A DNA stretch of 64,000 bases, from contig JAKIWI010000003.1 of NCBI GenBank assembly GCA_022750115.1, forward strand, positions 175,948-239,947, given 5' to 3'. A program made the translations under genes and the position numbers. Source of the stretch: Thermoplasmata archaeon. GTDB taxonomy: Archaea > Thermoplasmatota > Thermoplasmata > Lutacidiplasmatales > UBA184. This document shows positions 15,395-53,133 of this stretch, piece after piece. Numbering within the stretch: position 1 is the first letter of the stretch; every line of letters starts with the position of its first letter. The notes under the pieces were generated by a model, which saw only the letters and a list, made by a program, of their open reading frames with translations, was not told the DNA's origin and did not search any database.

Positions 15395-15402
15395 AGGTTC
15401 CG

Positions 15403-27917: not shown

Positions 27918-28146
27918 CCGCTGGACGCGCCGCGACGCCTGGCGACGCAGGCGCTCGCGGAGCGCCGCGATCCGCGCGGCGAGCGTGCTGTCGCGGGCCG
28001 CCTGCTCGGCGACGAGCGCCTTCGCGGCGTCGACGCCGCCCTCGGCGAGGGCGCGGACCAGCGCCGCCCGGTCGACGAGGTCGAGGATGTCGGTCGAGCC
28101 GACGTCCTCGGGGAACTGGGTGCAGTCCGGGAGCTCGATCGCGGTC

Positions 28147-29721
28147 TCAGAGGCGGGCGTCGTCGTCCGCGTCCTCTTCCGAGCAGGTGAACAAGGAGTA
28201 CCGCTCGAGAAGCTCGAAGGTCCGGAGGGCGGCGTCGACCGGCCGCAGCCCGGGCGGACGACGGCCCCGCTCGCCGACGTAGGAGGTGAACGCCCGGAAC
28301 TTCGGGAACTCGTTCCCCGGCACGGCGACGGTGTCGACCAGGGCCGGGTCGTTCTTCAGTCGCCGACCCTCGGAGACGACGGCCTCGCCGTCGGACTTGT
28401 TCTGCTTCAGGACGTTGCCGTAGAACCGGCACCAGTAGACGCCGCTCGAGCGCTTCAGCGCCGGCTCCAGATGCTGCTCGACGAACTCGCGCACGCGCCG
28501 CTCGTTCTGGTCGAACGAGTCGCCGCTGCGGGCGCGGATGCGGCCCCGCATGGCGTGGAGAAGTCCCGCCTGGACGTCCTCGACGCCCGCGACCGGGTGG
28601 TCGTGGAGGCTCGCGATGGCGGCGGTACGCGCCGCAATGTCGATGAGCGTCCGGTTCGACCCGACCTCCCCGATGTCGGGGTTGTCGTCGGACGCCTTCT
28701 GGCGCCACGTCTCGATGACGCGCACACCGGCGTCGACGAGGATCTCGGGGACGAAGCTCGTCCCGTCGATCGCGGCGGCCAGCTGCACGATGCGGCGGTT
28801 GGCGGCGTGCGAGGCGTTGTAGGTGACGTGGAGGCTCGTCAGGCGGTCGGAGAGCGGGTCGTTGATGTTGTCGAGGTCCGAGAGGTTCGATGTACCGACG
28901 GCGACGAACATCCCGGGGAAGCTCTCCCGGGACTTGGACGGGGTGACCGTCCCCTCCTGCAGCGCCTGGAGGAGCACGTTCTGCGTTCCGAGCGGGAGCT
29001 TGCCGATCTCGTCGACGAGGAGGAGGCCGCGGTTCGCCTGCAGGAGCTTCCCCGGCTCGAGCACGAGCGGGCTCATCGGGTCGCCGATCTCCTCGAGCCG
29101 TCGGAGGTTGATGTTGCCCGTCAGGTGGTCCGGGAACACTTCGCTGCTCCCCTGCAATCGGGCGAAGCCGTAGCCCTCGCGGAGGCGGACCTGCTCCGCG
29201 GGCACCTTCGTCGGGTCGATGGAGGCCGGGTCGAACGCCGAGACGTCGTTGCCCGGCGCGAACCGGCGGCGGCAGATCGGGCACGGGGGGAACCGCTCCG
29301 CCGCCTTCGGGTCGACGATCGAGAGGGGATGGTCGAGGACGGGGCAGTTCGGGACGACCCAGGCGTCCTTCGGGAACAGTTCCCAGACCTCCTTCGCGAG
29401 GTTCGTCTTGCCGGCGCCGGACGGGCCGAAGAAGAGGACGTGGGACCCAGCGACCAGCGCGGTCGTCAGGTCTTCGTAGGTGTTGGACGGGAGGACCGTC
29501 CGCGGGAACAGCGCCGCGGTCGCTTCCTCGCGGCTCATGCCGCCGCGCCGGCCGGCGTCGAGGCGCCGGAAGATCTCGGTGCGCAGGCGCTCGTTCGGGG
29601 TCTCGACCGCGACGCCCCGCTCCTTCAGCTGCTGGGCCGTCGCCTTCGTCCCGGCCGGGACGGACGACCTCGGGGCGGCACCGCTCGCCGTCGACACGCG
29701 CGGCCGAGCGAGGCACGCCAT
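28147..29721 (-). CDS. AAA+ ATPase (MoxR/ChlI-like clade) with Cys4 zinc-ribbon insertion
   Basis: Walker A GPSGAGKT, Walker B LLLVDEIGKL, sensor-1 VAVGTSN, insert CPVL...CPIC between A and B; chosen over overlapping frame 27914..29716. Confidence 0.75.
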   Translation of the reverse strand: MACLARPRVSTASGAAPRSSVPAGTKATAQQLKERGVAVETPNERLRTEIFRRLDAGRRGGMSREEATAALFPRTVLPSNTYEDLTTALVAGSHVLFFGPSGAGKTNLAKEVWELFPKDAWVVPNCPVLDHPLSIVDPKAAERFPPCPICRRRFAPGNDVSAFDPASIDPTKVPAEQVRLREGYGFARLQGSSEVFPDHLTGNINLRRLEEIGDPMSPLVLEPGKLLQANRGLLLVDEIGKLPLGTQNVLLQALQEGTVTPSKSRESFPGMFVAVGTSNLSDLDNINDPLSDRLTSLHVTYNASHAANRRIVQLAAAIDGTSFVPEILVDAGVRVIETWRQKASDDNPDIGEVGSNRTLIDIAARTAAIASLHDHPVAGVEDVQAGLLHAMRGRIRARSGDSFDQNERRVREFVEQHLEPALKRSSGVYWCRFYGNVLKQNKSDGEAVVSEGRRLKNDPALVDTVAVPGNEFPKFRAFTSYVGERGRRPPGLRPVDAALRTFELLERYSLFTCSEEDADDDARL

Positions 29722-29831
29722 ATGTAATTTGGGGACGCCACCGACGGTGGCGAACCGGTTTTCTCTCGGCGGCGGATCGTCCGCGCCGCCAGCATTAAGT
29801 AGGGAACGCGGGTCGGCGGCCCGCGCGACCG

Positions 29832-30551
29832 ATGGCCGAGAAGGAGGCCCAGCCGAAGAAGACGACGCTCGCCCGGACCGTCAAGGACAAGTGGCGGTCC
29901 AAGCACTGGTTCGTCGTCCGGGCGCCGTCGCTGTTCAACCACGCCGAGATCGGCGAGACGATGGCGAGCGAGCCCGAGCAGATCATCGGCCGGACGCTCG
30001 AGACCACCCTCCAAGAGATCACCGGCGGCGCCGACGTTGGCAAGGCGCACATCAAGCTCAAGTTCCAGATCGAGCGGGTCTCCGGGGAGAAGACCGCCGA
30101 GAGCCGATTCATCGGCCACGAACTCACGACCGATTACGTGCGGCGGCTCGCACGGAGGAAACGGTCCAAGATCGACACCTCGCTGATGGTGACGACGAAG
30201 GACGGGGTCCAGATCATCGTCAAGCCCGTCGCGGTCGGCGAGCAGCGCCTGCAGACACGCCTCCAGGCGGAGCTCCGCCTGCGCCTCCGCTCCCTCCTCA
30301 CCGAGGAGGCCGCGAAGAAGACCGGCGCCGAATTCGTGCGGGAGATGCTGGGCGGCGAGCTGGGCAAGATCCTCGCCCACGGCCTCAAGTCGCTCTATCC
30401 GCTCAAGAAGATCGAGATTCGTCGCTCCGTCGTGCTGGGGACCATCGAGGTCACCGCGCCCGGCGAGCTCGCTTCCGAGGCGGTCGGTGGCCCCACCCCC
30501 GAAGTCCCGATGGCGGTCGAGACGGCCCCGAGCACGCCCGCGGACGCTTGA
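29832..30551 (+). CDS. rps3ae: 30S ribosomal protein S3Ae (eS1)
   Basis: KDKWRSKHWFVVRAPSLFNHAEIGET N-terminus and overall ~240-aa length characteristic of eS1. Confidence 0.85.
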   Translation: MAEKEAQPKKTTLARTVKDKWRSKHWFVVRAPSLFNHAEIGETMASEPEQIIGRTLETTLQEITGGADVGKAHIKLKFQIERVSGEKTAESRFIGHELTTDYVRRLARRKRSKIDTSLMVTTKDGVQIIVKPVAVGEQRLQTRLQAELRLRLRSLLTEEAAKKTGAEFVREMLGGELGKILAHGLKSLYPLKKIEIRRSVVLGTIEVTAPGELASEAVGGPTPEVPMAVETAPSTPADA

Positions 30552-33837: not shown

Positions 33838-34110
33838 GCGGGCTGGCACAACGATCGACCCGCGACCGATAGACGGCCCCGCATCCCGAACACGGTCTCT
33901 CGACTCCCTTCCGGGTCGTGGGGCAACCTCTTCCGACCAAGTTCGACCCACCGCTCCGGATCCGAATTTTTCGTCCGAGCAACCCCCGACACGCCAGGTC
34001 GGTTCACCCCCCACGCGCCCCGTAGGTGAGCGTGGGACCACGCGTCCGAGTGCCGTCCGCGTCGCAACGCTGTGACCCCGTCGCTCCGGGCACGACCGGG
34101 TTGGCGGCCG

Positions 34111-37100
34111 ATGCACTCTTTGCTACGGGCCCCTGGCTTCCCCAACGCGATGGGAGCGGCCGGGGCCCGAAGCGATGCCCCGACCTCGGACCTCGCGCGC
34201 TTCCGGCATCGCGGCGTGCTCTGGGCCGTCTTGTTCGTAGCCGCCGCCGGAACGATGGGCCTCCCGGCGGGATTGTCGGGGATCGTGGACGCAACGGCGT
34301 CCGCGAATTCCCTCGCGGGCGTTCCCGTCCCTCCACCCGGCCGCGCTCTCGGCGCACCCCCGTCGGCCATCACCCCCACGCTCCCTTCGGGCGCCGCAGG
34401 TCACGCGGTCGAGTCGATGGCCGCTGCGAGCGCGAACGCCAGCGCGTGGTGGCCGTGTCGGTTGTGCGGGCCTCCCGCGCGAGCCAACTTCACGCTCGTC
34501 TCCGACCCGCGGAACGGGGAGCTCGTCCTCCAGGGCGGGTACGCTAGGGCGACCGGCTACTCGCCAGATGTCTGGACGTCCCGCAACGGCCACTGGACCG
34601 AGTCGTTCGCCTACCCGAACATCGGTCGTCGGCAAGGCGCGGCGGCGGCCTACGATCCCGCCATCGGTGAGACGGTCCTCTTTGGTGGGCTCTACGGATG
34701 GGACTACAGCGACACTTGGCTGTTCGACGGCACCAACTGGACCCAGCCGGCGTGCTCCTCGACCTGCCCGCCCCCCGCGCGGTTCGGGGCGAGCATGGCG
34801 TACGACGCTCAGGACCAGTACCTGCTGATGTTCGGTGGTCGCGCCTGCGTCGATTTCTCGTGTCCCCTCAACTCGAGCTTGTCCAACGACTCGTGGATGT
34901 ACCGCGCCGGCGCCTGGACGCAGCTCGCGCCGCCCGTCTCCCCCTCGCCCCGGGCGTGGGCGTCCATGGTCTACGATGCCCGCGACGGCTACGTGGTCCT
35001 GTTCGGCGGAGAGAACGGCGGCCTCCTTTCCGATACGTGGACCTTCCGATCCGGAATCTGGACCAATGTCACCTCACTCGCCGGAGGGGCACCCGCCGCT
35101 CGGGCGTACGCCAGCGCCACCTACGACCCGATCGGGGGGCGGGTCGTCCTCTTCGGCGGCCGGACCGCCATCGGCCCCACCAATGACCTCTGGCAGTTTG
35201 CCGGGGCCGCATGGAATCCTCTACCGGTCCTGCCCGGTCCGATTCCGGCACCTCGAACCGGTGCGGGACTGGCGTACGACCCTACCGCCGGGGACCTGGT
35301 TCTGGTGGGCGGCGCCGCCGGAGGGGGCGCCAAGGATCTCGGAGACTTCTGGGAGCTTCGGGGGGATCGATGGACCGTGTCCCCGGTCCACCAGTCGGCC
35401 TCCAGCGGCCAGGTGATCGCCTACGACGCCAAGGACCACGAGCAGGTCCTCTTCGGGGGTGGCACGATCGGCCTGCTCGGGGACGCGACTTGGAGGTTCC
35501 AAAACGGGGCCTGGAAGGACATCTCGAACCTGAGCCCCACACTCCCGAACCCTCGATTCTCCACCCAAATGACCTACGACGCCCGGGACGGCTACGTGCT
35601 CCTGTTCGGGGGGTACGGCTGCTTTTCTCCGGGCTGCACCGGCGGCATCTTTGGGCAGGGCCCGCTCAACGACACCTGGTCGTTCTCGGGGGGAAACTGG
35701 TCCCCGATCACGACTCCCGTCGCTCCCCCGACGACCGAAAACGGCGGGTTGACCTACGACTCGACGGACCAGGAGGTGGTTCTCCTGACCGAGTGCTCGT
35801 GCAGCGTTTCCTCACCGGTCACGGAGACCTGGACGTACGCGGCCGGGGTCTGGACGAACGTGACCGCCAACCAATCCGTCCAACCCTCGTTCGGCAGCGG
35901 GGGTGTTTCCATCGCGGACTCCCCGTGGGACAAGGGTGTCATCCTGTTCGGCGGTCAAGGGTTCAACTCGACCTGGCTGTTCTCCAACGGAAGTTGGAGC
36001 AATATCACGGGTACCGTCGGTCCGGGTCCGGCCTCCCGGTACGACGCGGGCTTCGCGTTGGATTCGACGGAGGGCTCCCCGGTGCTCTTCGGCGGGTTCC
36101 TTCAACCCGTGTGCTCGACCTGCTTGCCGACCGTGAACGACACGTGGGTGTTCCATCACGGCAGGTGGGTCAACGCGTCGGGCGGTTGGGCTCCCACTCC
36201 GCGCGGCACCGGTCAGGTGGCGGACGACCCGGCCGACCGCGGCGCCCTGCTATGGGGCGAATCCGGGGGACTGAACGCCGCCGACACTTGGTGGTACGGC
36301 CCCCCGCCGAACCTGACGGTCGACCCCCGGGCTTCGCCCCCGGTGGTCGATGCCTCGCTGCCGGTCCAGCTCTTCGCGGGGGAGTCGGGGGGAGTTCCGC
36401 CCTACCTGCTCAATTGGACCCAAGGAAACCGAACCTTGGGCTCGACACCCACGCTGACGGAGCAGTTCGGAGCCCCCGGGCACTACGTCGTCGGGATCAA
36501 CGCCTCCGACCGCAACAACCACTCGGCGAACGCAACGACCTCCGTCGACCTCGTCGCCAACCTGACCGAGACCGCCAACGCCTCGTCGACTCAAGACGCG
36601 GCGGGCGTCGCGATCCAGTTCGCGGGGTCCCACAACGGCGGCGTGGCGCCGTTCCTGACGATCTGGCGCTTCGGGGACGGTGCCTGGAGCAACCGCTCGA
36701 ATTGCTCGCACGTTTTCCAAACGTCCGGCTCGTACACCGTCTGGTTCTGGACGAACGACAGCGCCGGCGCCTCCGTCGGCACGCCCATCGCGCTGACCGT
36801 GACTGCGGCCATCTCCACCGCCGTCACGGAGTCGGCGAACGTCACGGATGTCGGAGTGGCGGTCGTCTTCAACGCGACCGCGATGGGCGGCGTGCCCCCG
36901 ATCCAGTCCTCGTGGAATTTCGGAGACGGCGCGACCGCGATCGGTCCATCGGCATCGCACATCTTTCTCGCCCCCGGACACTACGTCGTGCAGTCCTGGG
37001 CGAACGACAGCGTCGGCGGCTCCGTGACGGCGTCGATCGCCCTGACGGTGAATGCTCGACCCGTCGTCTCTCTGGTGAGCAGCGGACCGCTCGACCTGGG

Positions 37101-38106
37101 GCAGACCCTCGGCCTGCAAGCCAGCTCGGTCAACGGCTCCGGGACGATCGGCTACTCGTGGCAGGGATTGCCCACGGGGTGCGGGACGTCGCCGCTCGCT
37201 CGGATCTACTGTGCTCCCTCGACCGCCGGCGGCTTCGTTGTGGTGGTGACCGGGACCGATGCCGTCGGCGTATCGGTGGCTTCTCCCGCCGTTGCTGTGA
37301 CGGTGTTTCCGATCCTGAACGCCACGCTTCACCTCGCACCCACCTCGATCGACCTGGGGCAGGCCGCCAGCCTCTCGGTGAATGTCTCGGGAGGGGCGCC
37401 GCAGGATGCGATCACGTTCAGCGGCCTTCCGTCGGGCTGCCCGAGTGAGAATGCCACCTCGATCCGCTGTGTCGCCGGGGCACAGGGAACTTTCCACATC
37501 CGGGCCCACGTCACCGATTCCGTCGGCGGCAGCGCAAACGGCTCGGCGTCCCTCGTGGTCAACCCGGGACTCGCCGTGTCGGGGTTCTGGGTCAACACCT
37601 CGTTCATCAATCTCGGCGACAACGTGACGTTCACGTTCGCCGCCATCGGCGGGAGCGGCGCCCGATCGTACTCGTACACGGCCCTGCCCCCGGGGTGCGC
37701 CTCGTCCAACACCTCCCTCCTCTCGTGCCGCCCCTCAGCCGCCGGAAATTTCACTGTGGACGCCCTCGTGGCCGACGCGGCCGGAGAACACGCGGGCGCG
37801 AACGTTTCGCTGTTGGTGTTGCCCGCACCCGGCGGTGGGACGACGGCGACCGGTCTCTCCGGAGCGATACCGTACGAGCTCCTGGGCGCAGTCGGAGCGG
37901 CCATCCTCGCGGTACTGCTCGTTTGGCGGCGATATCGCCGACCCCCGACGGGCACGACGGGCGCCAGGACGGAGGCGGAGCAGGACCGGGAGGTGGGGCA
38001 CGATCCGGGCGTTGCGGAAGCGCACCTGGATTCGGAACCCACGGAACGCGGGAGCCCGCTCGATCATCCCAATCGGGGTCGTTCCCGTCGGCCTGCGACC
38101 GGATAG
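34111..38106 (+). CDS. giant surface protein: Kelch-type beta-propeller region followed by multiple PKD domains and C-terminal TM anchor
   Basis: ~1330 aa; repeated VLFGG / WxF blades in first ~600 aa; PKD hallmarks GGVPPYLLNW, GGVAPFLTIWRFGDGAWSN, GGVPPIQSSWNFGDGAT; anchor AILAVLLVWRRYRR; abundant NxS/T sequons; start could be a later in-frame Met. Confidence 0.7.
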   Translation: MHSLLRAPGFPNAMGAAGARSDAPTSDLARFRHRGVLWAVLFVAAAGTMGLPAGLSGIVDATASANSLAGVPVPPPGRALGAPPSAITPTLPSGAAGHAVESMAAASANASAWWPCRLCGPPARANFTLVSDPRNGELVLQGGYARATGYSPDVWTSRNGHWTESFAYPNIGRRQGAAAAYDPAIGETVLFGGLYGWDYSDTWLFDGTNWTQPACSSTCPPPARFGASMAYDAQDQYLLMFGGRACVDFSCPLNSSLSNDSWMYRAGAWTQLAPPVSPSPRAWASMVYDARDGYVVLFGGENGGLLSDTWTFRSGIWTNVTSLAGGAPAARAYASATYDPIGGRVVLFGGRTAIGPTNDLWQFAGAAWNPLPVLPGPIPAPRTGAGLAYDPTAGDLVLVGGAAGGGAKDLGDFWELRGDRWTVSPVHQSASSGQVIAYDAKDHEQVLFGGGTIGLLGDATWRFQNGAWKDISNLSPTLPNPRFSTQMTYDARDGYVLLFGGYGCFSPGCTGGIFGQGPLNDTWSFSGGNWSPITTPVAPPTTENGGLTYDSTDQEVVLLTECSCSVSSPVTETWTYAAGVWTNVTANQSVQPSFGSGGVSIADSPWDKGVILFGGQGFNSTWLFSNGSWSNITGTVGPGPASRYDAGFALDSTEGSPVLFGGFLQPVCSTCLPTVNDTWVFHHGRWVNASGGWAPTPRGTGQVADDPADRGALLWGESGGLNAADTWWYGPPPNLTVDPRASPPVVDASLPVQLFAGESGGVPPYLLNWTQGNRTLGSTPTLTEQFGAPGHYVVGINASDRNNHSANATTSVDLVANLTETANASSTQDAAGVAIQFAGSHNGGVAPFLTIWRFGDGAWSNRSNCSHVFQTSGSYTVWFWTNDSAGASVGTPIALTVTAAISTAVTESANVTDVGVAVVFNATAMGGVPPIQSSWNFGDGATAIGPSASHIFLAPGHYVVQSWANDSVGGSVTASIALTVNARPVVSLVSSGPLDLGQTLGLQASSVNGSGTIGYSWQGLPTGCGTSPLARIYCAPSTAGGFVVVVTGTDAVGVSVASPAVAVTVFPILNATLHLAPTSIDLGQAASLSVNVSGGAPQDAITFSGLPSGCPSENATSIRCVAGAQGTFHIRAHVTDSVGGSANGSASLVVNPGLAVSGFWVNTSFINLGDNVTFTFAAIGGSGARSYSYTALPPGCASSNTSLLSCRPSAAGNFTVDALVADAAGEHAGANVSLLVLPAPGGGTTATGLSGAIPYELLGAVGAAILAVLLVWRRYRRPPTGTTGARTEAEQDREVGHDPGVAEAHLDSEPTERGSPLDHPNRGRSRRPATG

Positions 38107-38280: not shown

Positions 38281-41200
38281 ATGTCGTACCGACGGTTCCC
38301 AGGGATCCGGTGGATTCCGATCAGCGTCGTTCTCCTCGTGCTCCTGACGGGGAACGGGTTCGCCTTGTCTCCCCCGGGGAGCGCGCCTCATTCGCCGGGC
38401 ACCGCGACCTCGGGCGCAACGGAGCTACGTGCGGTCGGCCCCGCCACGTCGCCGCCCGTCAACGTGACCCTCACGATCGGGAACCGGGCCGCGAACATCT
38501 CGAGCCAGTTCTTCGGCACCACGGTGAACAACGAAGTGCGGATGTTCCGCGGCGAAGCGACCGCGGTGAACGCCACCCCGGCGCGGGTCCTGGTCTGGCC
38601 CGGCGCCATGGCGGGCGAAGACTACGACCCGCTCACCCAGACCCACTACGACACGTATTCCGGAATTCCCAAGCACGCCCTCACGAACGAGAGCCAGTTC
38701 GTGCAATTGTGCAAGGCCACCCACTGCACCGCGATCGTCCAGGTCCCCGCCGAGATCGACAACGCCAGCTTCGCCGAGGCCGTCGTGAACTACACCGAGG
38801 TCAACCTGAGCTTCACCCCGGCCTACTGGATGATCGGCAACGAACCGGAGCTCTGGTCGCATTGGAAGCTCCCGTGGAAGGACTGGGCGACCCAGTCCAG
38901 CGGAGGCCCCGACCCGACCCAGTTCGGGCACGAGGTCGTCGCCTACGTGAAAGCGATCCGGGCGGTGGACAGCACGACCCCGATCCTCGGCCTGCCCGCC
39001 TCCGGCTGCACCTGCGGCTCGTGGACGTTCCCGCAGTGGATCTCGGGCGTCCTGAACGTCACCGGCTCGAAGATCCAGTCCGTGGCGTTCCACGAGTACC
39101 CCGCCGGCTGGCTTGGGACCGGGGACGGGAGCCTCGAGGACTTCTACGGGACGATCCAGAGCGCCGCGGGCATTCCGCCCCGGCTCGTCGCAGCCCGCGC
39201 CGCGGTCACGTCGTCGTGCCCCGGTTGCAACGTCTCGGTCTTCATCAGCGAGCTCGGCGCGGCGCTGTCCTGGTCGGCGTACGGCCAGTATTCGATTGGC
39301 TTCTCCGGGCCGTTGAGCCTCGCTTCCCAGATCACCCAGTCGATGGACCTGAACCTCACGAACGTCGACCTGTTCGCGACGGAGCTCACGACCACGAACT
39401 CGTGGTTCAACAACACCGGCCACGCCCGCGTGGACTACTCCCTCTACACCGGGATCCTGAACCACCTCGGCACCGAGGCCTTCCCCGTCAACATCACCGG
39501 GCTCGGGAACACGATCTACGGGATCGACACCATCGCTCCGGGCGATCACGGCCGCCGGGACCTGATGGTCGTGAACGACAACATCACCCATTCGATCTCC
39601 TTCGCCCCTCGATTCGCTGAGTCCTCGGTGAGCGCGCCCGTCGAGGCGTGGAGCTGGAACGGTTCGATCCACGCGACCGCCGGAAACGGAACCACCTGGG
39701 TGGAGCCGTACACCCCGCAGCCGGTCCCGCACGAGTTCTCCGACGGGCTGCCCGGGAACTACACGCTGCCGCCGCAGAGCCTGGTCCTGTTCGAGATGTA
39801 TCCGTCGGGCGCGACGTACGTCCGCGTCCTCGAGAACGGGGTGCCGGCCCCGACGGCCTGGTACGCCAGCGTCGGCCCGCAGTTCTACGGGACGACCGCC
39901 GACAACATCTCGCTCCTGCTCCCCGCGGGGTCGTACCCCGTCGCCTCGGTGCCCATTCCCCTCCCGATCGGCGGGCGCGAGCGCACCCCGATCGAGCAGC
40001 TGGCCCCCAACGCTCCCTCGCCGTTCCAGGTGAGCGGCTCCCACGCGAACGTCACCGTCACCTTCCTCACGCAGTGGGCCGTGAACGCCTCCGCCTCCCC
40101 CGCCATCGGGGGCACCGTCGCGCCGAACGTCGGGTGGTGGAACTCGAACGAGTCGTTGAACCTCACGGCCACGCCGACGCTCGGCTACGCCTTCGTCGGC
40201 TGGAGCGGATTTGGTCCGGGAAACTACAGCGGGGGGGGACGGACGGCCACCCTCACCCCGACCGGTCGGGTCTCCGAGAAGGCGCGGTTCGTGGTGGGCA
40301 ACCAAGTCGTCTTCGAAGAGTCCGGGCTGACCGCGGGGACGCCGTGGTCGGTGGACGTCCGCAGTTTCACGTCGACCTCCATCTCCAACCTCCTTACGGT
40401 CTACGAGCCGAACGGCCACTTCGGATTCTCCCTGAGCAATGTCGCGGGATTCCGGACGATCCCTCGGAACGGCAGCTTCAGCGTCGCGGGCGGGTGGAGC
40501 CTCGTCCACGTGCGGTACGACCCGATCACGCCGCCCCAACCGCAGTACCAGGTGACGTTCCAGATCGCGGGCCTCCCGTCCTCGATGACGGTCGCGATCA
40601 CCGTGCGGAACGTGACCGAGACCACCGGCTACTTCGTTCCCCAGTACCAGCTCGGGAACGGCACCTACGCCTACCGTGTGGGCGCCGAACCGGGGTACCA
40701 CGTCGCGGTGCCGGACAAGACGTTCGTCGTGAACGGCGGCTCGCTCGTCGTCACGGTCCCGTTCGTTCCGACCGTCTACACGGCGACCTGGGAGGCGGCG
40801 GGAACCCACCCCGGACTGAACTGGAGCGTCGTCGTCAACGGCTTGACCATCGTCGCGAGCTCGGCGTGGGTGTCGACCTCGTTGCCGAACGGCACCTACC
40901 CGTACGCGATCGTGTTCCCCGCCAACTACACCGCGAGCCCCTCGACGGGGGTCCTGTCGATCGGCGGCTCCGGGGTCCAGCAGCCGCTCGCGTTCTCCCT
41001 CGCGGAGTACCGAACCTGGTTCGACGCTTCGGGCCTCGGCTCGACGACCGCCTGGTCGGTACGGCTCGGGAACTCGACGCAGGGAACCTCGACCAACCGG
41101 ACGGCGTTCCTGGCGGCCAACGGCACCTACACCTTCGACGTGCACGCCCCGACCGGCTACTACGCGGTCCCCTCGCACGGGACCCTGACGATCTCCGGGT

Positions 41201-41364
41201 CGATGCCGTCGACCCACATCCAGTTCTATCCCGTCTCCGAACTGCCCTCGGCGGCCCTGGTCGCCGCCCTGAGCTCGGGCGCCCTCATGACCTCGATCTG
41301 GATCGGCGGGTCGATCTTCGTCGGGTTTGCCGCCGTCCGCGGGCTGCGGCGCCGGGACGGTTGA
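38281..41364 (+). CDS. surface-anchored protein with N-terminal clan GH-A-like (TIM-barrel) glycoside hydrolase domain, beta-sandwich repeats and C-terminal TM anchor
   Basis: Signal peptide MSYRRFPGIRWIPISVVLLVLLTGNGFALSPP; WMIGNEPELW (NEP acid/base motif of clan GH-A) and ISELG (candidate nucleophile); C-terminal IWIGGSIFVGFAAVRGLRRR anchor; antisense 1119-aa ORF rejected. Confidence 0.55.
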   Translation: MSYRRFPGIRWIPISVVLLVLLTGNGFALSPPGSAPHSPGTATSGATELRAVGPATSPPVNVTLTIGNRAANISSQFFGTTVNNEVRMFRGEATAVNATPARVLVWPGAMAGEDYDPLTQTHYDTYSGIPKHALTNESQFVQLCKATHCTAIVQVPAEIDNASFAEAVVNYTEVNLSFTPAYWMIGNEPELWSHWKLPWKDWATQSSGGPDPTQFGHEVVAYVKAIRAVDSTTPILGLPASGCTCGSWTFPQWISGVLNVTGSKIQSVAFHEYPAGWLGTGDGSLEDFYGTIQSAAGIPPRLVAARAAVTSSCPGCNVSVFISELGAALSWSAYGQYSIGFSGPLSLASQITQSMDLNLTNVDLFATELTTTNSWFNNTGHARVDYSLYTGILNHLGTEAFPVNITGLGNTIYGIDTIAPGDHGRRDLMVVNDNITHSISFAPRFAESSVSAPVEAWSWNGSIHATAGNGTTWVEPYTPQPVPHEFSDGLPGNYTLPPQSLVLFEMYPSGATYVRVLENGVPAPTAWYASVGPQFYGTTADNISLLLPAGSYPVASVPIPLPIGGRERTPIEQLAPNAPSPFQVSGSHANVTVTFLTQWAVNASASPAIGGTVAPNVGWWNSNESLNLTATPTLGYAFVGWSGFGPGNYSGGGRTATLTPTGRVSEKARFVVGNQVVFEESGLTAGTPWSVDVRSFTSTSISNLLTVYEPNGHFGFSLSNVAGFRTIPRNGSFSVAGGWSLVHVRYDPITPPQPQYQVTFQIAGLPSSMTVAITVRNVTETTGYFVPQYQLGNGTYAYRVGAEPGYHVAVPDKTFVVNGGSLVVTVPFVPTVYTATWEAAGTHPGLNWSVVVNGLTIVASSAWVSTSLPNGTYPYAIVFPANYTASPSTGVLSIGGSGVQQPLAFSLAEYRTWFDASGLGSTTAWSVRLGNSTQGTSTNRTAFLAANGTYTFDVHAPTGYYAVPSHGTLTISGSMPSTHIQFYPVSELPSAALVAALSSGALMTSIWIGGSIFVGFAAVRGLRRRDG

Positions 41365-43492
41365 TTCTCCCGATGGCCGGGAGCGGACGCGGGCGACGCG
41401 TACCGCGCCCTCGGGAGCTGTGATCCCCCTGCTCCCGCTCGACAACCTCGAAGACTTCGTCCAGTCGCTCGGGATTCCCGTCGGCGGGATCCTCGTCGGC
41501 CTCGCGCTCGGAGTCGCGTTGTTCGCGACGGCGGATTGGCTCCGCCATCGTCCTGCGAAGTCGGTCGTCGGCACCGTGCCGATCCGGATCGTCCCGGACC
41601 CCTCCGAGGCCGCCGCGACCCCCCCCGGAACCTCGGCCGTCCCGTCCGCGCCCGTCACGGTGTCGTCTGCGGAGGGGTCACGTACCGTGTTCCTGCGGGG
41701 GGCGGGGCTCTCGCCGAACGCCCCCCTCCCCCGGGCGCGCCGGTTCATCGCAATTCTAGTGGGGTCGTTCGTGGCCCTTTCCACGATCGAGCTCGCGCTG
41801 TTCTCGCGGCTGTTCCTTCCGTACGACCATCTCGTCGGCTATGCCGGCACCGCTCTGTTCTGGCCGACGCCGTGGCCGGGGGTGTACGCGGTAAACTCGG
41901 CGTCGCAGCTCGTTCCCGACTACATCTTCCCGATGTACCTCGCCGCGATGGCAGCGTTCGTCATCGCGAGCGGCCTCCTCTACCGCCGCCCCGCGCTCCC
42001 GCGGTACCGCCGGGCGCTGGCGGTCGGGCTGATCCTCCTCTACGTCGGCGTCGAGGTGATCTTGGACGCGGTGTTCTTCACCGTCCCGGGTCAGAGCGTC
42101 AAGAACTTCGCCATCGTCGTCCGCACGATGACCGGTGGGGTGTTCCTCTCCGGCCTCGCCTTCTGCGCGCTGTTCCTGCCGACGCCGCAGCGGGTGAAAC
42201 CTCGATTCCGTCGCGACCCGAACGCGCTGCTCCAGTTCTTCGGGACGGGGATCATCGCCATCGCGGTCGCGGGCGCGGCCTTGATCCTCGTCGACCGCTA
42301 CCTCGGGGACGATGGAGTGCTGCTGCCGTTCACGCTCCTCCTGCTCCTGCCGCTGGTGACGCTCGAGACGTTCATCGCCCTCAATCGACCGCAGTACTTC
42401 CGCCAGCTCCGCCGCCGTCCGCTCCCGCCGCTCTCCCGCTACCATCCGCCGGTGTCGATCGTCATGCCGGCGTACAACGAGGAGCGGTGGATCGCCGAGG
42501 CGATCCGGTGCGCCGACGTCGCCGCGGGCAAGTACCCGGGTCCCGTCGAGATCATCGTCGGCAACGACGGCTCGACGGACCGGACCTCGGAGATCGCCCG
42601 CACCGCGATCCTGGGCCTTCAACACGCGAAGGGGATGGTCGTCGACCTCCCGCACGCCGGGAAGTCGAACGGGCTCAACGGCGCGCTCGCGCTCGCGACG
42701 GGGGACATCGTGATCCGGCTCGACGCCGACACGTTCGTGTCCGAACGCTTCGGGTTCGCCGCGATCATCCCGCACTTCGCGGACCCGCAGATCGGCGGGG
42801 TACAGGGTTCGATCCACCCCCGCCAGCGCACGGGGTGGACCCGCAAGCTCCGCGCGCTCGAGATCGCCTGGGGCCACTACTTCCAGCGACCGGCCGTGAT
42901 GGGGGCCCGCTCGGGCGAGGTGATCGACGGCCTGTTCTCCGCCTTCCGCCGCAAGGACCTCGTCTCGCTCGGCGGCTGGGTCCCGTGGAACGGCGAGGAC
43001 ACCGAGCTGTCGATGCGGATCCAGCGGCTCGGCTACCGGGTCCGGATGGAGTTCGGGGCGCGGGCCTACGAGGACGTCCCCGAGAACTACGAGGCGCTCC
43101 GGCGGCAGCGCGTCCGATGGGCCCGCGGCATGCTGATGGCCAACGGCCAGCACTACCCCTCGCTCGTCGGGAACACCCCCGAGTTCGCCGGCCTCGGCGT
43201 GTTCCTCTGGTTCCTCACCTTCGCGCGCTCGGGCGTGCGCAGCCTCGTCTACGTGTTCCTGGTCCTGCTGCTGCTGCTACTGGGCGTCCACGCGCTCATC
43301 GACGTCGCCTACCTGCTGCTGCTCGCGCTCGTGCTCCGCGCCGTCCCGCTCGCCTACTTCCTCGGGAAGATGGGGCGCTGGGACATGCTGGTCTGGATTC
43401 CGTTCTTCCCGATCGCGAGCGTGATCAAACAGTCGTTCCGGTTCGAGGCGTTCGGGCTGATGGGCCCCGAGGCGAATCACGAGTACGCCTGA
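41327..43492 (+). CDS. processive family-2 glycosyltransferase (cellulose/chitin/hyaluronan-synthase-like) with N- and C-terminal TM bundles
   Basis: SIVMPAYNEERWI, GNDGSTDRT, DAD (DxD), QRVRWARG (QxxRW) motifs; ~8 N-terminal and ~4 C-terminal TM helices; alternative GTG start at 41420 avoids overlap with upstream gene. Confidence 0.8.
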   Translation: MPPSAGCGAGTVDSPDGRERTRATRTAPSGAVIPLLPLDNLEDFVQSLGIPVGGILVGLALGVALFATADWLRHRPAKSVVGTVPIRIVPDPSEAAATPPGTSAVPSAPVTVSSAEGSRTVFLRGAGLSPNAPLPRARRFIAILVGSFVALSTIELALFSRLFLPYDHLVGYAGTALFWPTPWPGVYAVNSASQLVPDYIFPMYLAAMAAFVIASGLLYRRPALPRYRRALAVGLILLYVGVEVILDAVFFTVPGQSVKNFAIVVRTMTGGVFLSGLAFCALFLPTPQRVKPRFRRDPNALLQFFGTGIIAIAVAGAALILVDRYLGDDGVLLPFTLLLLLPLVTLETFIALNRPQYFRQLRRRPLPPLSRYHPPVSIVMPAYNEERWIAEAIRCADVAAGKYPGPVEIIVGNDGSTDRTSEIARTAILGLQHAKGMVVDLPHAGKSNGLNGALALATGDIVIRLDADTFVSERFGFAAIIPHFADPQIGGVQGSIHPRQRTGWTRKLRALEIAWGHYFQRPAVMGARSGEVIDGLFSAFRRKDLVSLGGWVPWNGEDTELSMRIQRLGYRVRMEFGARAYEDVPENYEALRRQRVRWARGMLMANGQHYPSLVGNTPEFAGLGVFLWFLTFARSGVRSLVYVFLVLLLLLLGVHALIDVAYLLLLALVLRAVPLAYFLGKMGRWDMLVWIPFFPIASVIKQSFRFEAFGLMGPEANHEYA

Positions 43493-48479: not shown

Positions 48480-49181
48480 CTACGAGGGGGGCGAGTCGGG
48501 CCGGCGGGGCAGCCGGACCGGCCGTTCCCCCGTGACCAGGTAGACGACCCATTCCCCGATGTTGACGGCGTGGTCGCTGAGGCGCTCGAGGTAGCGGTTG
48601 ATCAGGATGCACTCGGCGCCGGTCCTCGGCGTGACGCTCCGACGCGCCATCCCCTCGATGATCAGCTGGAACAGCTCGTCGTGGAACCGGTCGACCGCAT
48701 CGTCGTCGGCGTGGATGTGCGACACGCTCGTCGAGTCCCCCGCGAGGTAGGCGTTCACCGCCGTCCGGATCATCCCGACCGTGAGGTTGCCCATCTCGCG
48801 GAGCTTCGGGAGGCTCTCGCGCCCGTCCCCTTCGCGGTGGAGTTCGTGGGCCGACTCCGCGATGTCCTTGGCGTAGCGGCCGATCCGGTCGAGGTCGGTC
48901 GTGACCTCGAGCGCGACGGTGATCGTCCGCAGGTCCTTCGCCACCGGCGCGTGGAGCGCGATCGTCTCGACGCAGTTGCGGACGATCCGCTCCTTGAGCC
49001 CGTACACCTCGCGGTCGATCGCGCTCACGTCGCCGACGACGCCCGGGTCCGGGGCATCGAGCCCGGCGACGGCGCGCTCGATCGCCTGCACGCTCAACGT
49101 CGCGATCGTCGTCATGTTCTCGCGGAGCGTGTTCAGCTCCTCCGAGAGCGCCTTGCGCTCCACCCGCCCGCCCATCGTCAT
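48480..49181 (-). CDS. phoU: phosphate transport system regulator PhoU
   Basis: Two PhoU repeats with D-x-x-ER motifs (DREVYGLKERI, DDDAVDRFHDEL, NRYLERLSDHAVNI); last gene of pst operon. Confidence 0.8.
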   Translation of the reverse strand: MTMGGRVERKALSEELNTLRENMTTIATLSVQAIERAVAGLDAPDPGVVGDVSAIDREVYGLKERIVRNCVETIALHAPVAKDLRTITVALEVTTDLDRIGRYAKDIAESAHELHREGDGRESLPKLREMGNLTVGMIRTAVNAYLAGDSTSVSHIHADDDAVDRFHDELFQLIIEGMARRSVTPRTGAECILINRYLERLSDHAVNIGEWVVYLVTGERPVRLPRRPDSPPS

Positions 49182-49936
49182 TACCCGAACCTCCCCGTGA
49201 TGTAGCTCTCCGTGAGCTTCTCCGCCGGCCGCTCGAACAGGTCGCGCGTCGGCGCGACCTCGACGAGCTTGCCGAGGTAGAGGAACGCCGTCCGGTCGGC
49301 GACGCGCGCCGCCTGTTGCATGTTGTGCGTGACGATGACGACCGGCACCTGGTTCTTCAGATCGAAGATCAGGTCCTCGATGCGCGCCGTCGAGATCGGG
49401 TCGAGGGCGCTCGCGGGCTCGTCCATCAGCAGCACCTCCGGCTGGACCGCGAGGGCGCGCGCGATACAGAGCCGCTGCTGCTGGCCGCCCGACAGCTGGA
49501 GCGCGCTCTGGTCGAGCTTCTCCTTGACCTCCTCCCAGAGGGCGGCCTTCTTGAGGCTCTCGATCACGAGCCGGTCCATCTCGTCGTGCGAGTAGCCGCC
49601 ATGGAGCTTCAGCCCCGCCGCGACGTTCCCATAGATCGACATCGTCGGGAAGACGTTCGGGCGTTGGAACACCATCCCGATCTTCCGCCGGATCTCGGTC
49701 GGGTCGTCGGCGTAGACGTCCGCGCCGTCGAGGAGCACCTTCCCCTCGGCGCGCGCCTTCGGCTGGGTCTCGTGGATCCGGTTGAGGCAGCGGATAAACG
49801 TCGATTTTCCGCAGCCGGAGGGGCCGATGATCGCCGTAGCGCGCTTGTCCGGAAACGACAGCGAGATGTCCTGGACGGCGTGGGTCTTCCCGTACCACGC
49901 GTTCAGGTTCTCCACCACGAGCTTGTCGCCGGTCAT
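49181..49936 (-). CDS. pstB: phosphate ABC transporter ATP-binding protein
   Basis: Walker [10 protein letters not shown], signature LSGGQQQRL, Walker [12 protein letters not shown]; 251 aa. Confidence 0.9.
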
Positions 49937-50832
49937 GCCGTCCTCCCCCCGAACTTGTTGCGCAGCGCGAGCCGCGCGCCCACGCTGATGAGGAGCATAA
50001 TGAGGACGAGCATGAGCGCCGCGCCCCAGGCGAGCTGCGTCGTGTTCGCATACCCCCCCGCGGCGGAGTAGTAGATCAGCACCGGCAGCGACGGCGTCCA
50101 TCCGGAGAGGCCGGTGATGGCCCCCGTCGTGAATCCGGCGGTGAGGAGGAGGGGGGCGGTCTCGCCGCCCGCGCGGGCGACCGCGAGCAGAGCGCCCGTG
50201 ATGACCCCGCCGCGGGCGGCGGAGAGGACGATCCGAAGGATCGTGCGGTGGCGCGGGATCCCAAGCGCGAGCGACGCCTCGCGGATCGACACCGGCACGA
50301 GGCGCAGCGCCTCCTCGCAAGTCCGCGCGACGACGGGGATCATGATCACGGCGAGCGCGACCGCCCCCGTGTAGCCCGAGGTAATCGAAAACGAGCTGAT
50401 CCATCCCTGCTCGGCGAAGAACAGGAAGATCCCGAAGACGAACACCCCGATGACGATCGACGGGATGCCGGTCATGACGTCGGCGAGGAACCTCGCCGGG
50501 CGCGCGAGCGGCCGGTCCTGGAACTCGGAGAGGTAGATCCCCCCGAGGATCCCGACGGGGAGCGCGATCAGGGAGGCGACGACGACGAGCAGCAGTGTCC
50601 CGAGCAACGCGTCCTGGATCCCGCCCACGGGGCAAGGGGTCGTCGGCCCGGGGTTGCACGGTGGCGGCGGATTCTGCAAGAAGAAGGCCGGGGTGATCGC
50701 CCCCGCGCCGTTGACGAAGCACTCGAGGAGGATGCTCGCGAGCGGGAGGAGCGTGATCAGGACAGCGGTCGCGCAGAGGCCGAGGAGTACCGCGCTCTTC
50801 ACGCGGCGGCGCAGTCGCTTCGGGGGCCTCAC
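49933..50832 (-). CDS. pstA: phosphate ABC transporter permease PstA
   Basis: 6 TM helices, EAA-loop [16 protein letters not shown]; GTG start overlapping pstC stop (ATG alternatives further in); long GC-extended ORF 49933..51396 rejected. Confidence 0.75.
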
Positions 50833-51878
50833 GGCGCCGATCCCCCCATCCGGGTCATCGACCGCAGCATCAGCCGGGCCGCGACGTTCACGAGCAGCGA
50901 GAGCCCCATCAGGATCAGGCCGAGCTCGATCAGGGCGGACTTCTCGAGCGGGAGCGCGTTCCCGAAGTTGATCGCGATCTTGCTCGACAGGGTCTGGCCG
51001 GGGTCGAACAGCGAGGTGGCGAAGTTGTCCGAGTTGCCGATCGTCATCGTTACGGCCATCGTCTCCCCCATCGCCCGGCCCAGCCCGAGGATCGCCGCCC
51101 CGAAGATCCCCGAGCGGGCGTAGGCGAGCGGGCCGAGGCGCGTCGCCTCCCAGCGGGTCGCGCCCAGGCTCAGCGCGGCCTCCCGCTGGCTGTCCGGCGT
51201 CGCGCGGAGGGCTTCCCGGCTCACCGAGGAGATCGTCGGGAGGATCATGATCGCGAGGATGATCGACGCCGTCAGGACGCTCACTCCGCTCTGGCTCCCG
51301 GCGTGCGAGGCGAACAGGGGGGTCCAGCCGAGGTAGTGGACGAGCGCCGGGTCGACGTTCGAGCGCATGTACGGGACGAGGACGTAGAGGCCCCACAGCC
51401 CGAACACGACCGACGGCACGGCCGCGAGGAGGTCGACGACCGAGGCGACGGGCGCCCGCAGCCAGTCGGGCGCGAGCTCAGCAAGGAAGATCGCCGCGCC
51501 GATCGACAAGGGAACCCCGATGAGCATCGCGATGACGCTCGTCTCGAGCGTCCCGGCGACGAACGGCGCCGCGCCGAACGTGATCGGGGAGGTCGGGGAG
51601 GCGCTCGGGACCCAGAACTGGCCGATGACGAACCCGGGGCCGAATCGTACAATCGCCCGCCACGAGGCTTGGGTGATGATGACGATCAGCAGCGCCGGGA
51701 GCGCGATGAGTACGAGGGCGGCGAGGGTCGAGAGACCCCCGAAGAACCGGTCGACCACCCCGGTAAAGCTCCGTCGCCGGTCCGGACCCTGCGACGGGGA
51801 AGGGGTTGCTCCGGCCGGCTCGGCGGGACCCGTCGCGGGGAGGGGGTCCGTGCCGGTGCCGACCGGTGGTTCTGCCAT
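50829..51878 (-). CDS. pstC: phosphate ABC transporter permease PstC
   Basis: 6 TM helices, EAA-loop [15 protein letters not shown]. Confidence 0.85.
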
Positions 51879-51903
51879 GCCGAGGCCTTCCGACGTGGTT
51901 CCC

Positions 51904-53106
51904 CTAGTGCGACGTCAGCGCATGACCGTTGTAGGTGATGCTGCCGATCGCCGCCTCGTCGAGCGTCACCACGTTCGACGGCAGCGGCACGTAGGAGAGA
52001 CCGACCGAGTACGTCTGACCCGTCGTGACCAGCCACCAGAGGAACGCGACGGTGCCCTGCGCGTGCGCCTGGCTCTCGCTCGAGCCGTAGACCGCGCCGA
52101 GGTCCAGGTAGACCATCAGGTAGGAGAACGTCGCGATCGGGTAGGTCGTCGCTCCCACCTCGTTGAGGAGGGAGACGCTGTCCCAGCCGGCCTCGGCGTT
52201 CGCCGCCGGGAGGCCCGCCACGCTCGCCGCGGCCGCCGCGGTGTTCGTCTCGTTCGGCAGGATGTAGTTGCTCGCGGGGTTCTGGACGGCCGCGTACGCG
52301 AGGTTGTTGGTGATCGCGTAGGCGAGGTCGACGTAGCCGATCGAGTCCGGGTTCGTCTTGACGTCGCCAGCGACGCCGAGCGAGCCGCTGCCCTTGATCC
52401 CGACGGGCCAGGTGACGGAGGTGCCCGAGCCGACCTTCGTCTTCCACGAGGAGTTCTCGAGCGTGAGCCAGCTCGTGAAGACGTACGTCGTGCCGCTCGA
52501 GTCCGCGCGCTCCACGACCGTGATGTTCGCGCTCGGGAGCTTCGTAACGGGGTTCAGCGCGACGATCGAAGGGTCGTTCCACGTCTTGATCGTGCCGAGG
52601 TAGATCCCGGCGAGGACCGTGCCAGAGAGGTTGAGCCCCTTCGCGAGCCCGTTGTTGTAGATGATCGAGACGCCCGCGACGACCTCGGGGATCGTGAGGA
52701 CGGTCGAGCCACCCGGTAGCGTGCTCACCTGGGTCGCCGAGAGCGGGGCATCGGATGCCCCGATGTCGACGGTCTTTTGGCTGAGGTCCGTGACGCCGGC
52801 TCCGCTGCCGACGCCGTTGTAGTTCACTTGGCCGCAGGAGTACTGGGCCGACCAGAGCGTCATCAGCGGCTGCACGAGCGTCGAGCCCGCCGCTTGGACC
52901 GTCTGCCCGGTCCCACCGGGGCACGGGCCGCTCGACTTCTTCGGCGAGAGCCACCCGGCGGAGGCTCCGTACGCGAGCACCACCACCACGATCACCACGA
53001 CCACGATCACCGCGTACATCGCGGCGTGGCTCGACGATCGCTTCGGGAGCTTGCTCTTGTCGGCGTCGGTCGGCGCGTTCGTTCCGTTTGCGTTGTTCGC
53101 ACTCAT
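51904..53106 (-). CDS. pstS: phosphate ABC transporter substrate-binding protein PstS (membrane-anchored)
   Basis: N-terminal anchor MYAVIVVVVIVVVVLAYGASAGW; periplasmic-binding-protein type II fold with GSGAGVTDLSQKTVDIGASDAPLS phosphate-binding block. Confidence 0.8.
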   Translation of the reverse strand: MSANNANGTNAPTDADKSKLPKRSSSHAAMYAVIVVVVIVVVVLAYGASAGWLSPKKSSGPCPGGTGQTVQAAGSTLVQPLMTLWSAQYSCGQVNYNGVGSGAGVTDLSQKTVDIGASDAPLSATQVSTLPGGSTVLTIPEVVAGVSIIYNNGLAKGLNLSGTVLAGIYLGTIKTWNDPSIVALNPVTKLPSANITVVERADSSGTTYVFTSWLTLENSSWKTKVGSGTSVTWPVGIKGSGSLGVAGDVKTNPDSIGYVDLAYAITNNLAYAAVQNPASNYILPNETNTAAAAASVAGLPAANAEAGWDSVSLLNEVGATTYPIATFSYLMVYLDLGAVYGSSESQAHAQGTVAFLWWLVTTGQTYSVGLSYVPLPSNVVTLDEAAIGSITYNGHALTSH

Positions 53107-53133
53107 TCCGTTTTTTCCTCCTCGGGGAGTTTC

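Follow-up and report, generated by a model that had tools for sequence, protein, structure and literature searches.

Gene Structure of the Locus

We analyzed a window of 64,000 nucleotides from a Thermoplasmata archaeon (assembly GCA_022750115.1, contig JAKIWI010000003.1, positions 175,948 to 239,947). The window has a GC content of 66-76% and encodes the archaeal ribosomal protein S3Ae. Two neighboring genes on its forward strand are the subject of this study. The first encodes a surface-anchored protein resembling the glycoside hydrolases (GH) of clan GH-A, and the second encodes an integral-membrane glycosyltransferase of family 2 (GT2). A sequence-only reading of the DNA had proposed that the pair forms a module for synthesis and hydrolysis of a surface glycan. 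This proposal is supported computationally by the folds and motifs of the two proteins and by the linkage of their genes in 46 of 51 assessable loci, and the glycosidase presumably acts on the product of the synthase. The coordinates of all features of the locus are given in Table 1.

Table 1. Features of the two-gene locus, numbered from the first nucleotide of the window.
Feature	Position	Strand	Basis
Gene for surface-anchored clan GH-A-like glycosidase, 1027 residues, predicted type-I membrane N-glycoprotein	38281..41364	+	Translation; third-position GC content (GC3) 0.92; 31 sequons; terminal hydrophobic segments
Catalytic region, residues 57-515, predicted (beta/alpha)8 barrel and beta-sandwich	38449..39825	+	AlphaFold2 model, Foldseek, profile matches
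E188, predicted acid/base, in GNEP motif directly after barrel strand 182-185	38842..38844	+	Invariant in two alignments
E324, predicted nucleophile, in FISELG on barrel strand 319-325	39250..39252	+	Invariant in two alignments
Stalk of beta-sandwich domains, residues 516-985, with four ~77-residue GLxxGTxWSV repeats	39826..41235	+	Motif periodicity
C-terminal transmembrane anchor (residues 990-1019) and basic cytoplasmic tail RGLRRRDG	41248..41361	+	Hydropathy scan; kept in the L001 and L002 orthologs
Intergenic spacer of 55 nucleotides, GGGAG 2-3 nucleotides before the GTG start	41365..41419	+	Sequence
Gene for 690-residue integral-membrane GT2 of the cellulose/chitin/hyaluronan/poly-N-acetylglucosamine (PNAG) synthase type	41420..43492	+	Identical to P0024; Pfam; AlphaFold2; Foldseek
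Lineage-specific N-terminal membrane domain, residues 1-340: one transmembrane helix, beta-hairpin region (residues 56-93), about six helices	41420..42439	+	AlphaFold2 secondary structure
Cytoplasmic GT-A catalytic domain	42440..43159	+	Motif positions; alignment to BcsA motifs
C-terminal helices, residues 591-679, ending in invariant KQxFRFE	43190..43456	+	AlphaFold2 model, hydropathy, alignment to BcsA transmembrane helices 5-6

Both open reading frames have a GC3 of 0.92, which is typical of real genes in a genome of 69% GC. The glycosidase-like protein starts with a hydrophobic leader (residues 6-32), the secretory signal of the sequence-only reading, and ends in the C-terminal anchor that had likewise been recognized there. 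It contains 31 N-X-S/T sequons where 9.4 are expected from its composition (3.3-fold), while the GT2 protein contains none. This richness in sequons fits, together with the leader, with the protein being an exported N-glycoprotein. An "RRF" in the leader was considered as a Tat signal and dropped, since it is not kept in the orthologs. Between the catalytic region and the anchor, the GLxxGTxWSV-type motifs of the beta-sandwich repeats are found at residues 682, 764, 841, and 918, i.e., 77-82 residues apart, and residues 604-648 give a weak Pfam match to Flg_new_2 (InlB B-repeat). The ortholog in the closely related locus L001 is 68% identical over its full length. The repeat number of the stalk differs among orthologs; the one in L002, for example, has 1391 residues.

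The two genes had been described as overlapping by about 38 nucleotides. The overlap with the upstream stop is there when the GT2 reading frame is read from the TTG at 41327. However, the identical NCBI protein (P0024, 690 residues) starts at the GTG at 41420, and the N-termini of the homologs align to that position. We therefore take GTG 41420 as the start, which leaves a gap of 55 nucleotides and makes the overlap an artefact of the TTG. The two genes are probably co-transcribed. Nothing convincing was seen in the short spacers when they were inspected for a TATA-like promoter or a terminator.

Fold and Family of the Glycosidase-Like Protein

The window protein alone gave no Pfam, NCBIfam, or PDB sequence match in its catalytic part, and glycosidase models of Pfam and NCBIfam remained without a match even at E <= 10. 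When 5.8 billion proteins were searched, only 23 relatives came back, of which nearly all were from Thermoplasmata. The one match that lay outside this Thermoplasmata family, a GH51-type protein of a Phycisphaerales bacterium (3.8e-5), was obtained in a second profile search of broader scope; in the searches run, the family was essentially confined to Thermoplasmata. These homolog searches were word-indexed and shallow (23 and 19 matches) and missed orthologs that were later exposed by synteny, and the size of the family is better judged from the syntenic loci described below. One fragment that is 71% identical (P0009) is binned as "Nitrososphaerales archaeon"; it lies on a short contig (1-2.5 kb) and is probably mis-binned rather than a sign of wider distribution.

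When the family profile was compared to PDB sequences, GH51 arabinofuranosidases were matched at 5e-6. Matches to GH79 followed at 3.5e-4 to 6e-4 (Burkholderia heparanase, 5bwi/7pr9; entry 7pr9 is cited in a heparanase inhibitor study, PMC9351465), and GH44 was weaker. An AlphaFold2 model of residues 1-540 had a predicted local distance difference test score (pLDDT) of 72.5 and a predicted template modeling score (pTM) of 0.71, with core blocks at 85-96. It consists of eight alternating strand/helix units followed by a beta-sandwich, in agreement with the TIM-barrel-like region read from the sequence. In a Foldseek search of the PDB with this model GH51 came first (6e-19, TM-score 0.63-0.70), followed by human proheparanase, the GH44 enzyme Cel44A, an Acidobacterium GH79 beta-glucuronidase, and leech hyaluronidase. 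Overall, the GH51, GH79, and GH44 matches had E-values of 1e-15 to 6e-19, TM-scores of 0.54-0.70, and identities of 11-15%.

Both catalytic motifs named in the sequence-only reading were found, WMIGNEPELW at residues 183-192 (nucleotides 38827-38856) and the candidate nucleophile motif ISELG at residues 322-326 (nucleotides 39244-39258). In the model, E188 lies just after one strand and E324 on another (Table 1), which are the canonical positions of clan GH-A. FHEYP (residues 270-274) is found on the strand preceding that of the nucleophile. GNEP with E188, H271, P274, and E324 are invariant in the alignment of relatives. Across the copies in related loci, NEP is kept in 63 of 63 alignable sequences, and H271/Y273 (HxY) and the nucleophile glutamate are kept in 64 of 64. 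Such invariance would be expected if the enzyme is active and not a mere structural remnant.

The assignment to a family is less straightforward. A TIM barrel is present, but no GH model of Pfam or NCBIfam matches the window protein. The likeness to GH51 amounts to a remote profile match (5e-6) and 13% identity in the structural comparison, with no Pfam match, and membership of GH51 is not indicated. GH44 was tried as a label and rejected: PF12891 gives no match to the window protein even at E <= 10, it matches only 5 of 17 homologs weakly (best 4.5e-5), and GH44 structures rank below those of GH51 and GH79. Public annotation is inconsistent, in that an identical N-terminal fragment (P0008) is named "glycoside hydrolase family 44 protein" and the full-length orthologs are named "hypothetical protein." Because no GH44 model matches the window protein, the NCBI name is unsupported. 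Based on sequence and model, the protein is predicted to belong to clan GH-A, in a family that is unclassified and lies outside the Pfam and NCBIfam models, and thereby a candidate for a new GH family.

Two subtypes of the glycosidase-like protein were observed. The long anchored subtype has the nucleophile motif F[IV][ST]E[LIV]G and is encoded upstream of the GT2 gene. The short subtype (~560 residues) has the motif L[VA]DE[FV] and is encoded downstream of the GT2 gene in a deep clade; it is also found, in convergent orientation, downstream of GT2 in some genomes that retain the long form. Loci with these subtypes include L049 (9729-12917), L051, L054-L056, L026 (7512-9242, reverse strand), L033 (6179-7984, reverse strand), and L045 (5851-7614, reverse strand).

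The Glycosyltransferase and Its Relation to Known Synthases

Residues ~343-633 of the GT2 protein match the Pfam families Glyco_tranf_2_3, Glyco_trans_2_3, and Glycos_transf_2 at 1e-22 to 1e-24. The multi-spanning topology and the DxD and QRVRWARG motifs noted from the sequence were all found. In detail, the motifs are DGS (residues 383-385), DAD (435-437, nucleotides 42722-42730, within LDADT at 434-438), GED (525-527, nucleotides 42992-43000, within NGEDTE at 524-529), and QRVRW (563-567, nucleotides 43106-43120, within QRVRWARG at 563-570). They are invariant in 86 homologs, and wherever the contig covers this part of the gene, DxD, GED/SED, and QxxRW are retained, the distant clade included. 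More than 230 homologs were found; among the 120 matches listed the identity is 57-100% over the full length, and the protein is thus well conserved.

The best NCBIfam matches were PgaC_IcaA (1.6e-29), NodC (1.3e-14), and BcsA (4e-10). A profile alignment to BcsA pairs DGSTD with DDGGTD, DAD with DAD (FDADH), GED with TED, and QRVRW with QQRGRW; the hidden Markov model (HMM) alignment spans residues 55-433 and runs through transmembrane helices on both sides. Models of dolichyl- and undecaprenyl-phosphate transferases scored 13-29 bits against cut-offs of 325-529, including ArnC (28 vs. 529), the haloarchaeal Dol-P-hexose transferase (21 vs. 375), and AglJ (15.5 vs. 325). The alignments to these polyprenyl-phosphate enzymes were mostly restricted to ~100 residues at the N-terminal end of the GT domain, and QRVRW is present in the window protein. 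The GT2 is thus not classed with the dolichyl-phosphate transferases, which is also in line with its predicted fold.

The AlphaFold2 model of the GT2, built with 86 homologs, had a pLDDT of 88.9 and a pTM of 0.88. From the N-terminus it has one helix, a small beta-hairpin region, and about six helices; these lead into the GT-A domain, and QRVRW is followed by an interface helix and four further helices. The GT domain is hence inserted between helices on both sides, and in the structural comparison the model resembles hyaluronan synthase (HAS), BcsA, and chitin synthase (Chs) with the transmembrane helices included. The top Foldseek matches were Xenopus HAS1 (2.6e-13), Chlorella virus HAS, PcManGT, BcsA, and the fungal and oomycete Chs1/Chs2, over 420-490 aligned columns. 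Since this is too many for a soluble domain alone, the fold match includes the transmembrane region. Reading the sequence by eye, we recognized neither an FxVTxK or WGT(R/K) gating motif nor a HAS-type WGTSGRK.

Only the last helices of the N-terminal domain align to transmembrane helices of BcsA. The domain has invariant motifs of its own, such as PDYIFPMYLAAMAAF. A search with the first 347 residues against 1.84 billion proteins matched 26 cluster representatives, and the near-full-length matches that include the downstream region all had 665-805 residues, the size of the window GT2. As the matches are few and all GT2-sized, the N-terminal membrane domain is peculiar to the lineage.

No cyclic di-GMP receptor (PilZ or similar) and no outer-membrane export components were found in the GT2 or its neighbors. 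Their absence is unsurprising in an archaeon with a single membrane.

Linkage of the Two Genes Across Thermoplasmata

Screening one genome for each GTDB species gave 58 loci and metagenomes gave three more, resulting in 61 loci in total. Of the 58, 57 are labeled Thermoplasmata, Thermoplasmatota, Thermoplasmatales, or Methanobacteriota. The remaining one (L057), a GT2 fragment of 2.5 kb, is binned as "bacterium," probably by mistake. Linkage was assessed by tblastn, an HMM of the catalytic domain, and clustering of open reading frames.

In 39 loci the glycosidase-like gene was found immediately upstream of the GT2 gene on the same strand, with a spacer of mostly 42-165 nucleotides. In a clade where the GT2 is 38-47% identical to that of the window, it was found downstream on the same strand (seven loci). 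Ten loci were cut by a contig end, five of them with a repeat stalk at the edge, and five had enough flank and no adjacent glycosidase-like gene. The two genes are accordingly co-oriented neighbors in 46 of 51 assessable loci, whose GT2 proteins are 38-91% identical to that of the window. The gene order is inverted in one deep clade. One gene lies between the two in five of the seven "downstream" loci; in L049 this is a separate FN3-repeat protein, and the L051 counterpart clusters with it. Clustering of all neighboring open reading frames revealed no other gene family conserved around the pair.

The glycosidase partner was found to diverge much faster than the GT2. In L002 the glycosidase-like protein is 37% identical to that of the window and the GT2 is 60% identical. 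Faster divergence is expected for a surface-exposed protein. Several genomes have extra glycosidase-like paralogs flanking the GT2 gene (two to three copies in all), and free-standing paralogs were found elsewhere, beside thermopsin or Kelch/PKD proteins.

Some loci deviated in gene content. In L048 (6686-14393), which lacks an adjacent glycosidase-like gene, the GT2 gene is followed by genes for a sugar nucleotidyltransferase, an NAD epimerase/dehydratase, and a phosphohexomutase (PGM/PMM). In L058, also without an adjacent glycosidase-like gene, a TrmB sugar-specific regulator (10184-11380, reverse strand) lies beside the GT2 gene. In one clade, a second GT2 of 465 residues that matches the same Pfam families follows the main one at a distance of about 6 kb downstream, as in L002 (14456-15853, forward strand) and L003 (9293-10690, forward strand); the window has no counterpart. 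An apparent fusion of GT2 and glycosidase in L062 and L063 was rejected, as the parts are in different frames and the long reading frame is an upstream extension of the kind typical of high-GC DNA.

Interpretation and Alternatives

We consider it fairly probable (about 0.6) that the two genes form a surface-glycan module that is synthase-dependent and has its own dedicated glycosidase or transglycosylase of the retaining type, conserved in uncultured Thermoplasmata of the Lutacidiplasmatales and their relatives. In such a module a nucleotide-sugar would be bound at the cytoplasmic GT-A domain of the GT2, with DGS and DAD serving donor and metal, the aspartate of GED acting as the catalytic base, and QRVRW holding the end of the acceptor chain. 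Repeated sugar addition with inversion would give a beta-linked chain. By analogy with BcsA, class-I HAS, chitin synthase, and PgaC, the chain might be passed outward through a channel formed by the transmembrane helices of the GT2 itself. The 1027-residue neighbor would be exported, heavily N-glycosylated, and tethered by its C-terminal transmembrane helix, with the ~470-residue beta-sandwich stalk holding the retaining clan GH-A barrel (E188, E324) above the membrane. There the barrel could cleave or transglycosylate the emerging polymer for control of chain length, release, or remodeling, and BcsZ, PslG, the C-terminal domain of PgaB, and PelA would be its bacterial equivalents. As to the nature of the polymer, there is a weak hint in favor of one containing N-acetylhexosamine, in that PgaC/IcaA gives the highest score for the GT domain and HAS the closest fold.

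Several observations weigh against this interpretation. All motifs that had been taken as the hallmark of processive synthases are present in the GT2, and processivity may be presumed from them, but the closest PDB sequence is PcManGT (6yv7, profile 7e-23), a non-processive N-glycan mannosyltransferase, with BcsA coming second. QxxRW is found also in GT2 and GT21 enzymes that do not polymerize or that form oligomers, e.g., NodC and ceramide glucosyltransferase, and the window GT2 has a weak Pfam match to Glyco_transf_21 (7e-8). The GT2 fails the NCBIfam equivalog cut-offs for PgaC_IcaA (103 vs. 422 bits), NodC (54 vs. 550), and BcsA (38 vs. 992); with all scores far below the cut-offs, it is an ortholog of no characterized synthase. 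No sugar-nucleotide or export genes were found near the pair in the window; among the relatives, sugar-nucleotide genes turned up beside the GT2 only in the exceptional locus L048. The model of the glycosidase-like protein is of moderate confidence only (pLDDT 72.5), and the host organisms are all uncultured metagenome-assembled genomes, many of them from soil and peat metagenomes.

The most serious alternative, which we find doubtful, is that the GT2 is non-processive. It would then synthesize a glycolipid, a lipoglycan, or a sugar linked to polyprenyl phosphate, or carry out one step of N- or O-glycan synthesis, and would lie beside the gene for the large surface protein because it helps to glycosylate this protein or the envelope, with the substrate of the glycosidase being unrelated. 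PcManGT, an archaeal enzyme with a minimal cellulose-synthase-like fold, as the top PDB sequence match speaks for this, as do the 31 sequons of the neighboring protein, the weak GT21 match, and the glycolipids and lipoglycans for which Thermoplasmata are known. However, QRVRW is invariant in the family where the aligned segment of PcManGT reads WRIRR. Models of dolichyl- and undecaprenyl-phosphate transferases match very weakly and only in the N-terminal half of the GT domain, whereas the matches to the folds of HAS, BcsA, and Chs run through the transmembrane helices. A glycosylation helper would also be unlikely to follow one GH family with invariant catalytic residues through an inversion of gene order.

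It was also considered that the GH-A domain is mainly a transglycosylase, which would graft or cross-link the synthase product onto glycoproteins or other chains and thereby build a fixed glycocalyx or pseudo-wall. As a main activity this seems quite improbable to us, and it is a sub-variant of the synthase-dependent module rather than an exclusive alternative. Transfer is allowed by the retaining clan GH-A mechanism, as established by enzymology, and would suit an enzyme that is permanently membrane-tethered on a long stalk and that has two to three paralogs flanking GT2 in several genomes. The cultured members of the class Thermoplasmata lack a classical wall, and the GPI-anchored fungal GH72 and GH17 enzymes, which act alongside glucan synthase, offer an analog. 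No sequence feature, however, separates transglycosylases from hydrolases here.

Finally, it is very improbable that the surface glycosidase is a scavenger of nutrients from plant or microbial polysaccharides (arabinan, xyloglucan, or glucuronate-containing glycans) and that its adjacency to GT2 is meaningless: its closest matches in fold and family (GH51, GH44, GH79) are for the most part degradative enzymes, the genomes come from soils and peat, and free-standing paralogs exist away from GT2, but adjacency and co-orientation persist in 46 of 51 assessable loci across 38-91% GT2 identity and through the order inversion, with no other conserved neighbor, and the window has no sugar transporter or catabolic genes beside the pair.

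Returning to the synthase-dependent module, the analysis suggests that wall-less Thermoplasmata of soil and peat make and trim a surface polysaccharide. A further-reaching version, which we regard as unlikely, is a lineage-specific envelope machine in which the synthase, with its unique N-terminal membrane domain, extrudes a beta-glycan and stalked, membrane-tethered GH-A transglycosylases of a new GH family, often in two to three paralogs around the synthase, graft and cross-link it into a fixed acid-resistant coat or pseudo-wall. If true, Archaea would thereby have their first defined system for synthase-dependent polysaccharides of the cell surface; the literature searched contained no synthase-dependent polysaccharide system from an archaeon for which partners are defined. 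Genes for PgaC/BcsA-like GT2 proteins had already been noted in archaeal genomes, without partners or function (PMC10086821). Lutacidiplasmatales (formerly TMEG) are a group of acidic soils, and the paper describing their genomes reports only alpha-glucan GH families and does not mention the GT2-GH module (PMC9287336). The nearest named relative among our loci is Candidatus Lutacidiplasma silvani (L016), a member of this group.

As a concrete two-gene unit, the pair lends itself to testing, and it is conserved in 58 or more of the genomes that represent GTDB species, almost all of them labeled Thermoplasmata. It offers a candidate new clan GH-A family and a synthase with a new membrane domain, and it provides an entry to the surface composition of abundant uncultured archaea of acid soils. 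The surface layer of these cells matters for acid tolerance, aggregation, virus adsorption, and soil carbon. The biology to be expected is an extension of a known theme and no new principle.

Surroundings of the Pair in the Window

The window also encodes two large surface proteins with Kelch beta-propellers, at 34072-38106 on the forward strand and at 22753-25755 on the reverse strand. The former also has PKD domains, a C-terminal transmembrane helix, and 40 sequons where 9.6 are expected. It was considered as a third component of the module and rejected, since only 13 related loci have a Kelch/PKD protein near glycosidase-like paralogs and its position is not fixed (e.g., 1251-3479 in L004).

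A type-IV-pilus-like locus lies at 11775-17160 on the forward strand. It comprises T2SSE/PilB-type ATPases (11775-13472 and 14872-17160) and T2SSF membrane proteins (13473-14435 and 14435-15394), and is followed by an N6/N4 DNA methylase gene (17060-18280). On the reverse strand, a PrkA/MoxR-like AAA ATPase gene adjoins a gene for a VWA-domain protein (26343-29880); the AAA gene is syntenic in L001. Also on the reverse strand, genes for a phosphate ABC transporter (PstS-like binding protein, permease, and ATPase) are located between PhoU-domain genes (48480-54468). Because the phosphate transporter has the same relative position in L001, an 82%-identical relative, the wider neighborhood is syntenic with that locus. 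At the right end of the window (62001-64000) the GC content rises to 0.76 and the AT skew falls to -0.32.

Comparison With Known Systems

Three groups of characterized enzymes resemble the individual proteins. GH51 (alpha-L-arabinofuranosidase), GH79 (heparanase, beta-glucuronidase, and leech hyaluronidase), and GH44 (endoglucanase and xyloglucanase) have a (beta/alpha)8 barrel and a beta-sandwich in common. GH51 and GH79 belong formally to clan GH-A, and GH44 has the same barrel, beta-sandwich, and catalytic layout. Like the window protein, the three families have an acid/base of the NEP type after strand 4 and a nucleophile glutamate on strand 7. Unlike them, the window family carries a repeat stalk and a C-terminal anchor in the same polypeptide.

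For the GT2, the best structural matches are the class-I HAS enzymes (Xenopus HAS1, 8smp; Chlorella virus HAS, 7sp7), at 2.6e-13 to 1e-11 and with a TM-score (TMt) of 0.55-0.60 over ~450-470 aligned columns that include the transmembrane helices. Class-I HAS is synthase and translocator in a single protein. However, the identity to the GT2 is merely 14-16% and the N-terminal third of the archaeal protein is left unaligned. PcManGT from Pyrobaculum calidifontis (6yv7), a membrane-bound GT-A enzyme with a minimal cellulose-synthase-like fold, is archaeal and 23% identical. It has 356 residues and WRIRR in place of QxxRW, whereas the window GT2 has 690 residues, about 11 helices, and an invariant QRVRW.

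As a pair, the genes are best compared to the bacterial synthase-dependent exopolysaccharide systems. In the Bcs (BcsA-BcsZ, cellulose) and Pga (PgaC-PgaB, PNAG) systems a membrane GT2 with D, DxD, (T/G)ED, and QxxRW is found beside an extracytoplasmic glycoside hydrolase, as in the window. PslG of the Psl system is a GH39 enzyme of clan GH-A, a membrane-tethered barrel with a beta-sandwich. The conserved co-localization of synthase and glycosidase in such exopolysaccharide operons is also seen for the window pair (46 of 51 assessable loci). The differences lie in the archaeal host and in the lack of a PilZ/c-di-GMP module, a BcsB-like partner, a porin, and TPR components. Moreover, the window glycosidase belongs to none of GH8, GH153, GH39, and GH166, and the synthase has an extra N-terminal membrane domain of ~340 residues, unlike the bacterial synthases. 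Judged by sequence, the window module is an ortholog of none of the Bcs, Pga, Psl, HAS, or Chs systems and appears to extend the theme that they represent in bacteria, eukaryotes, and viruses.

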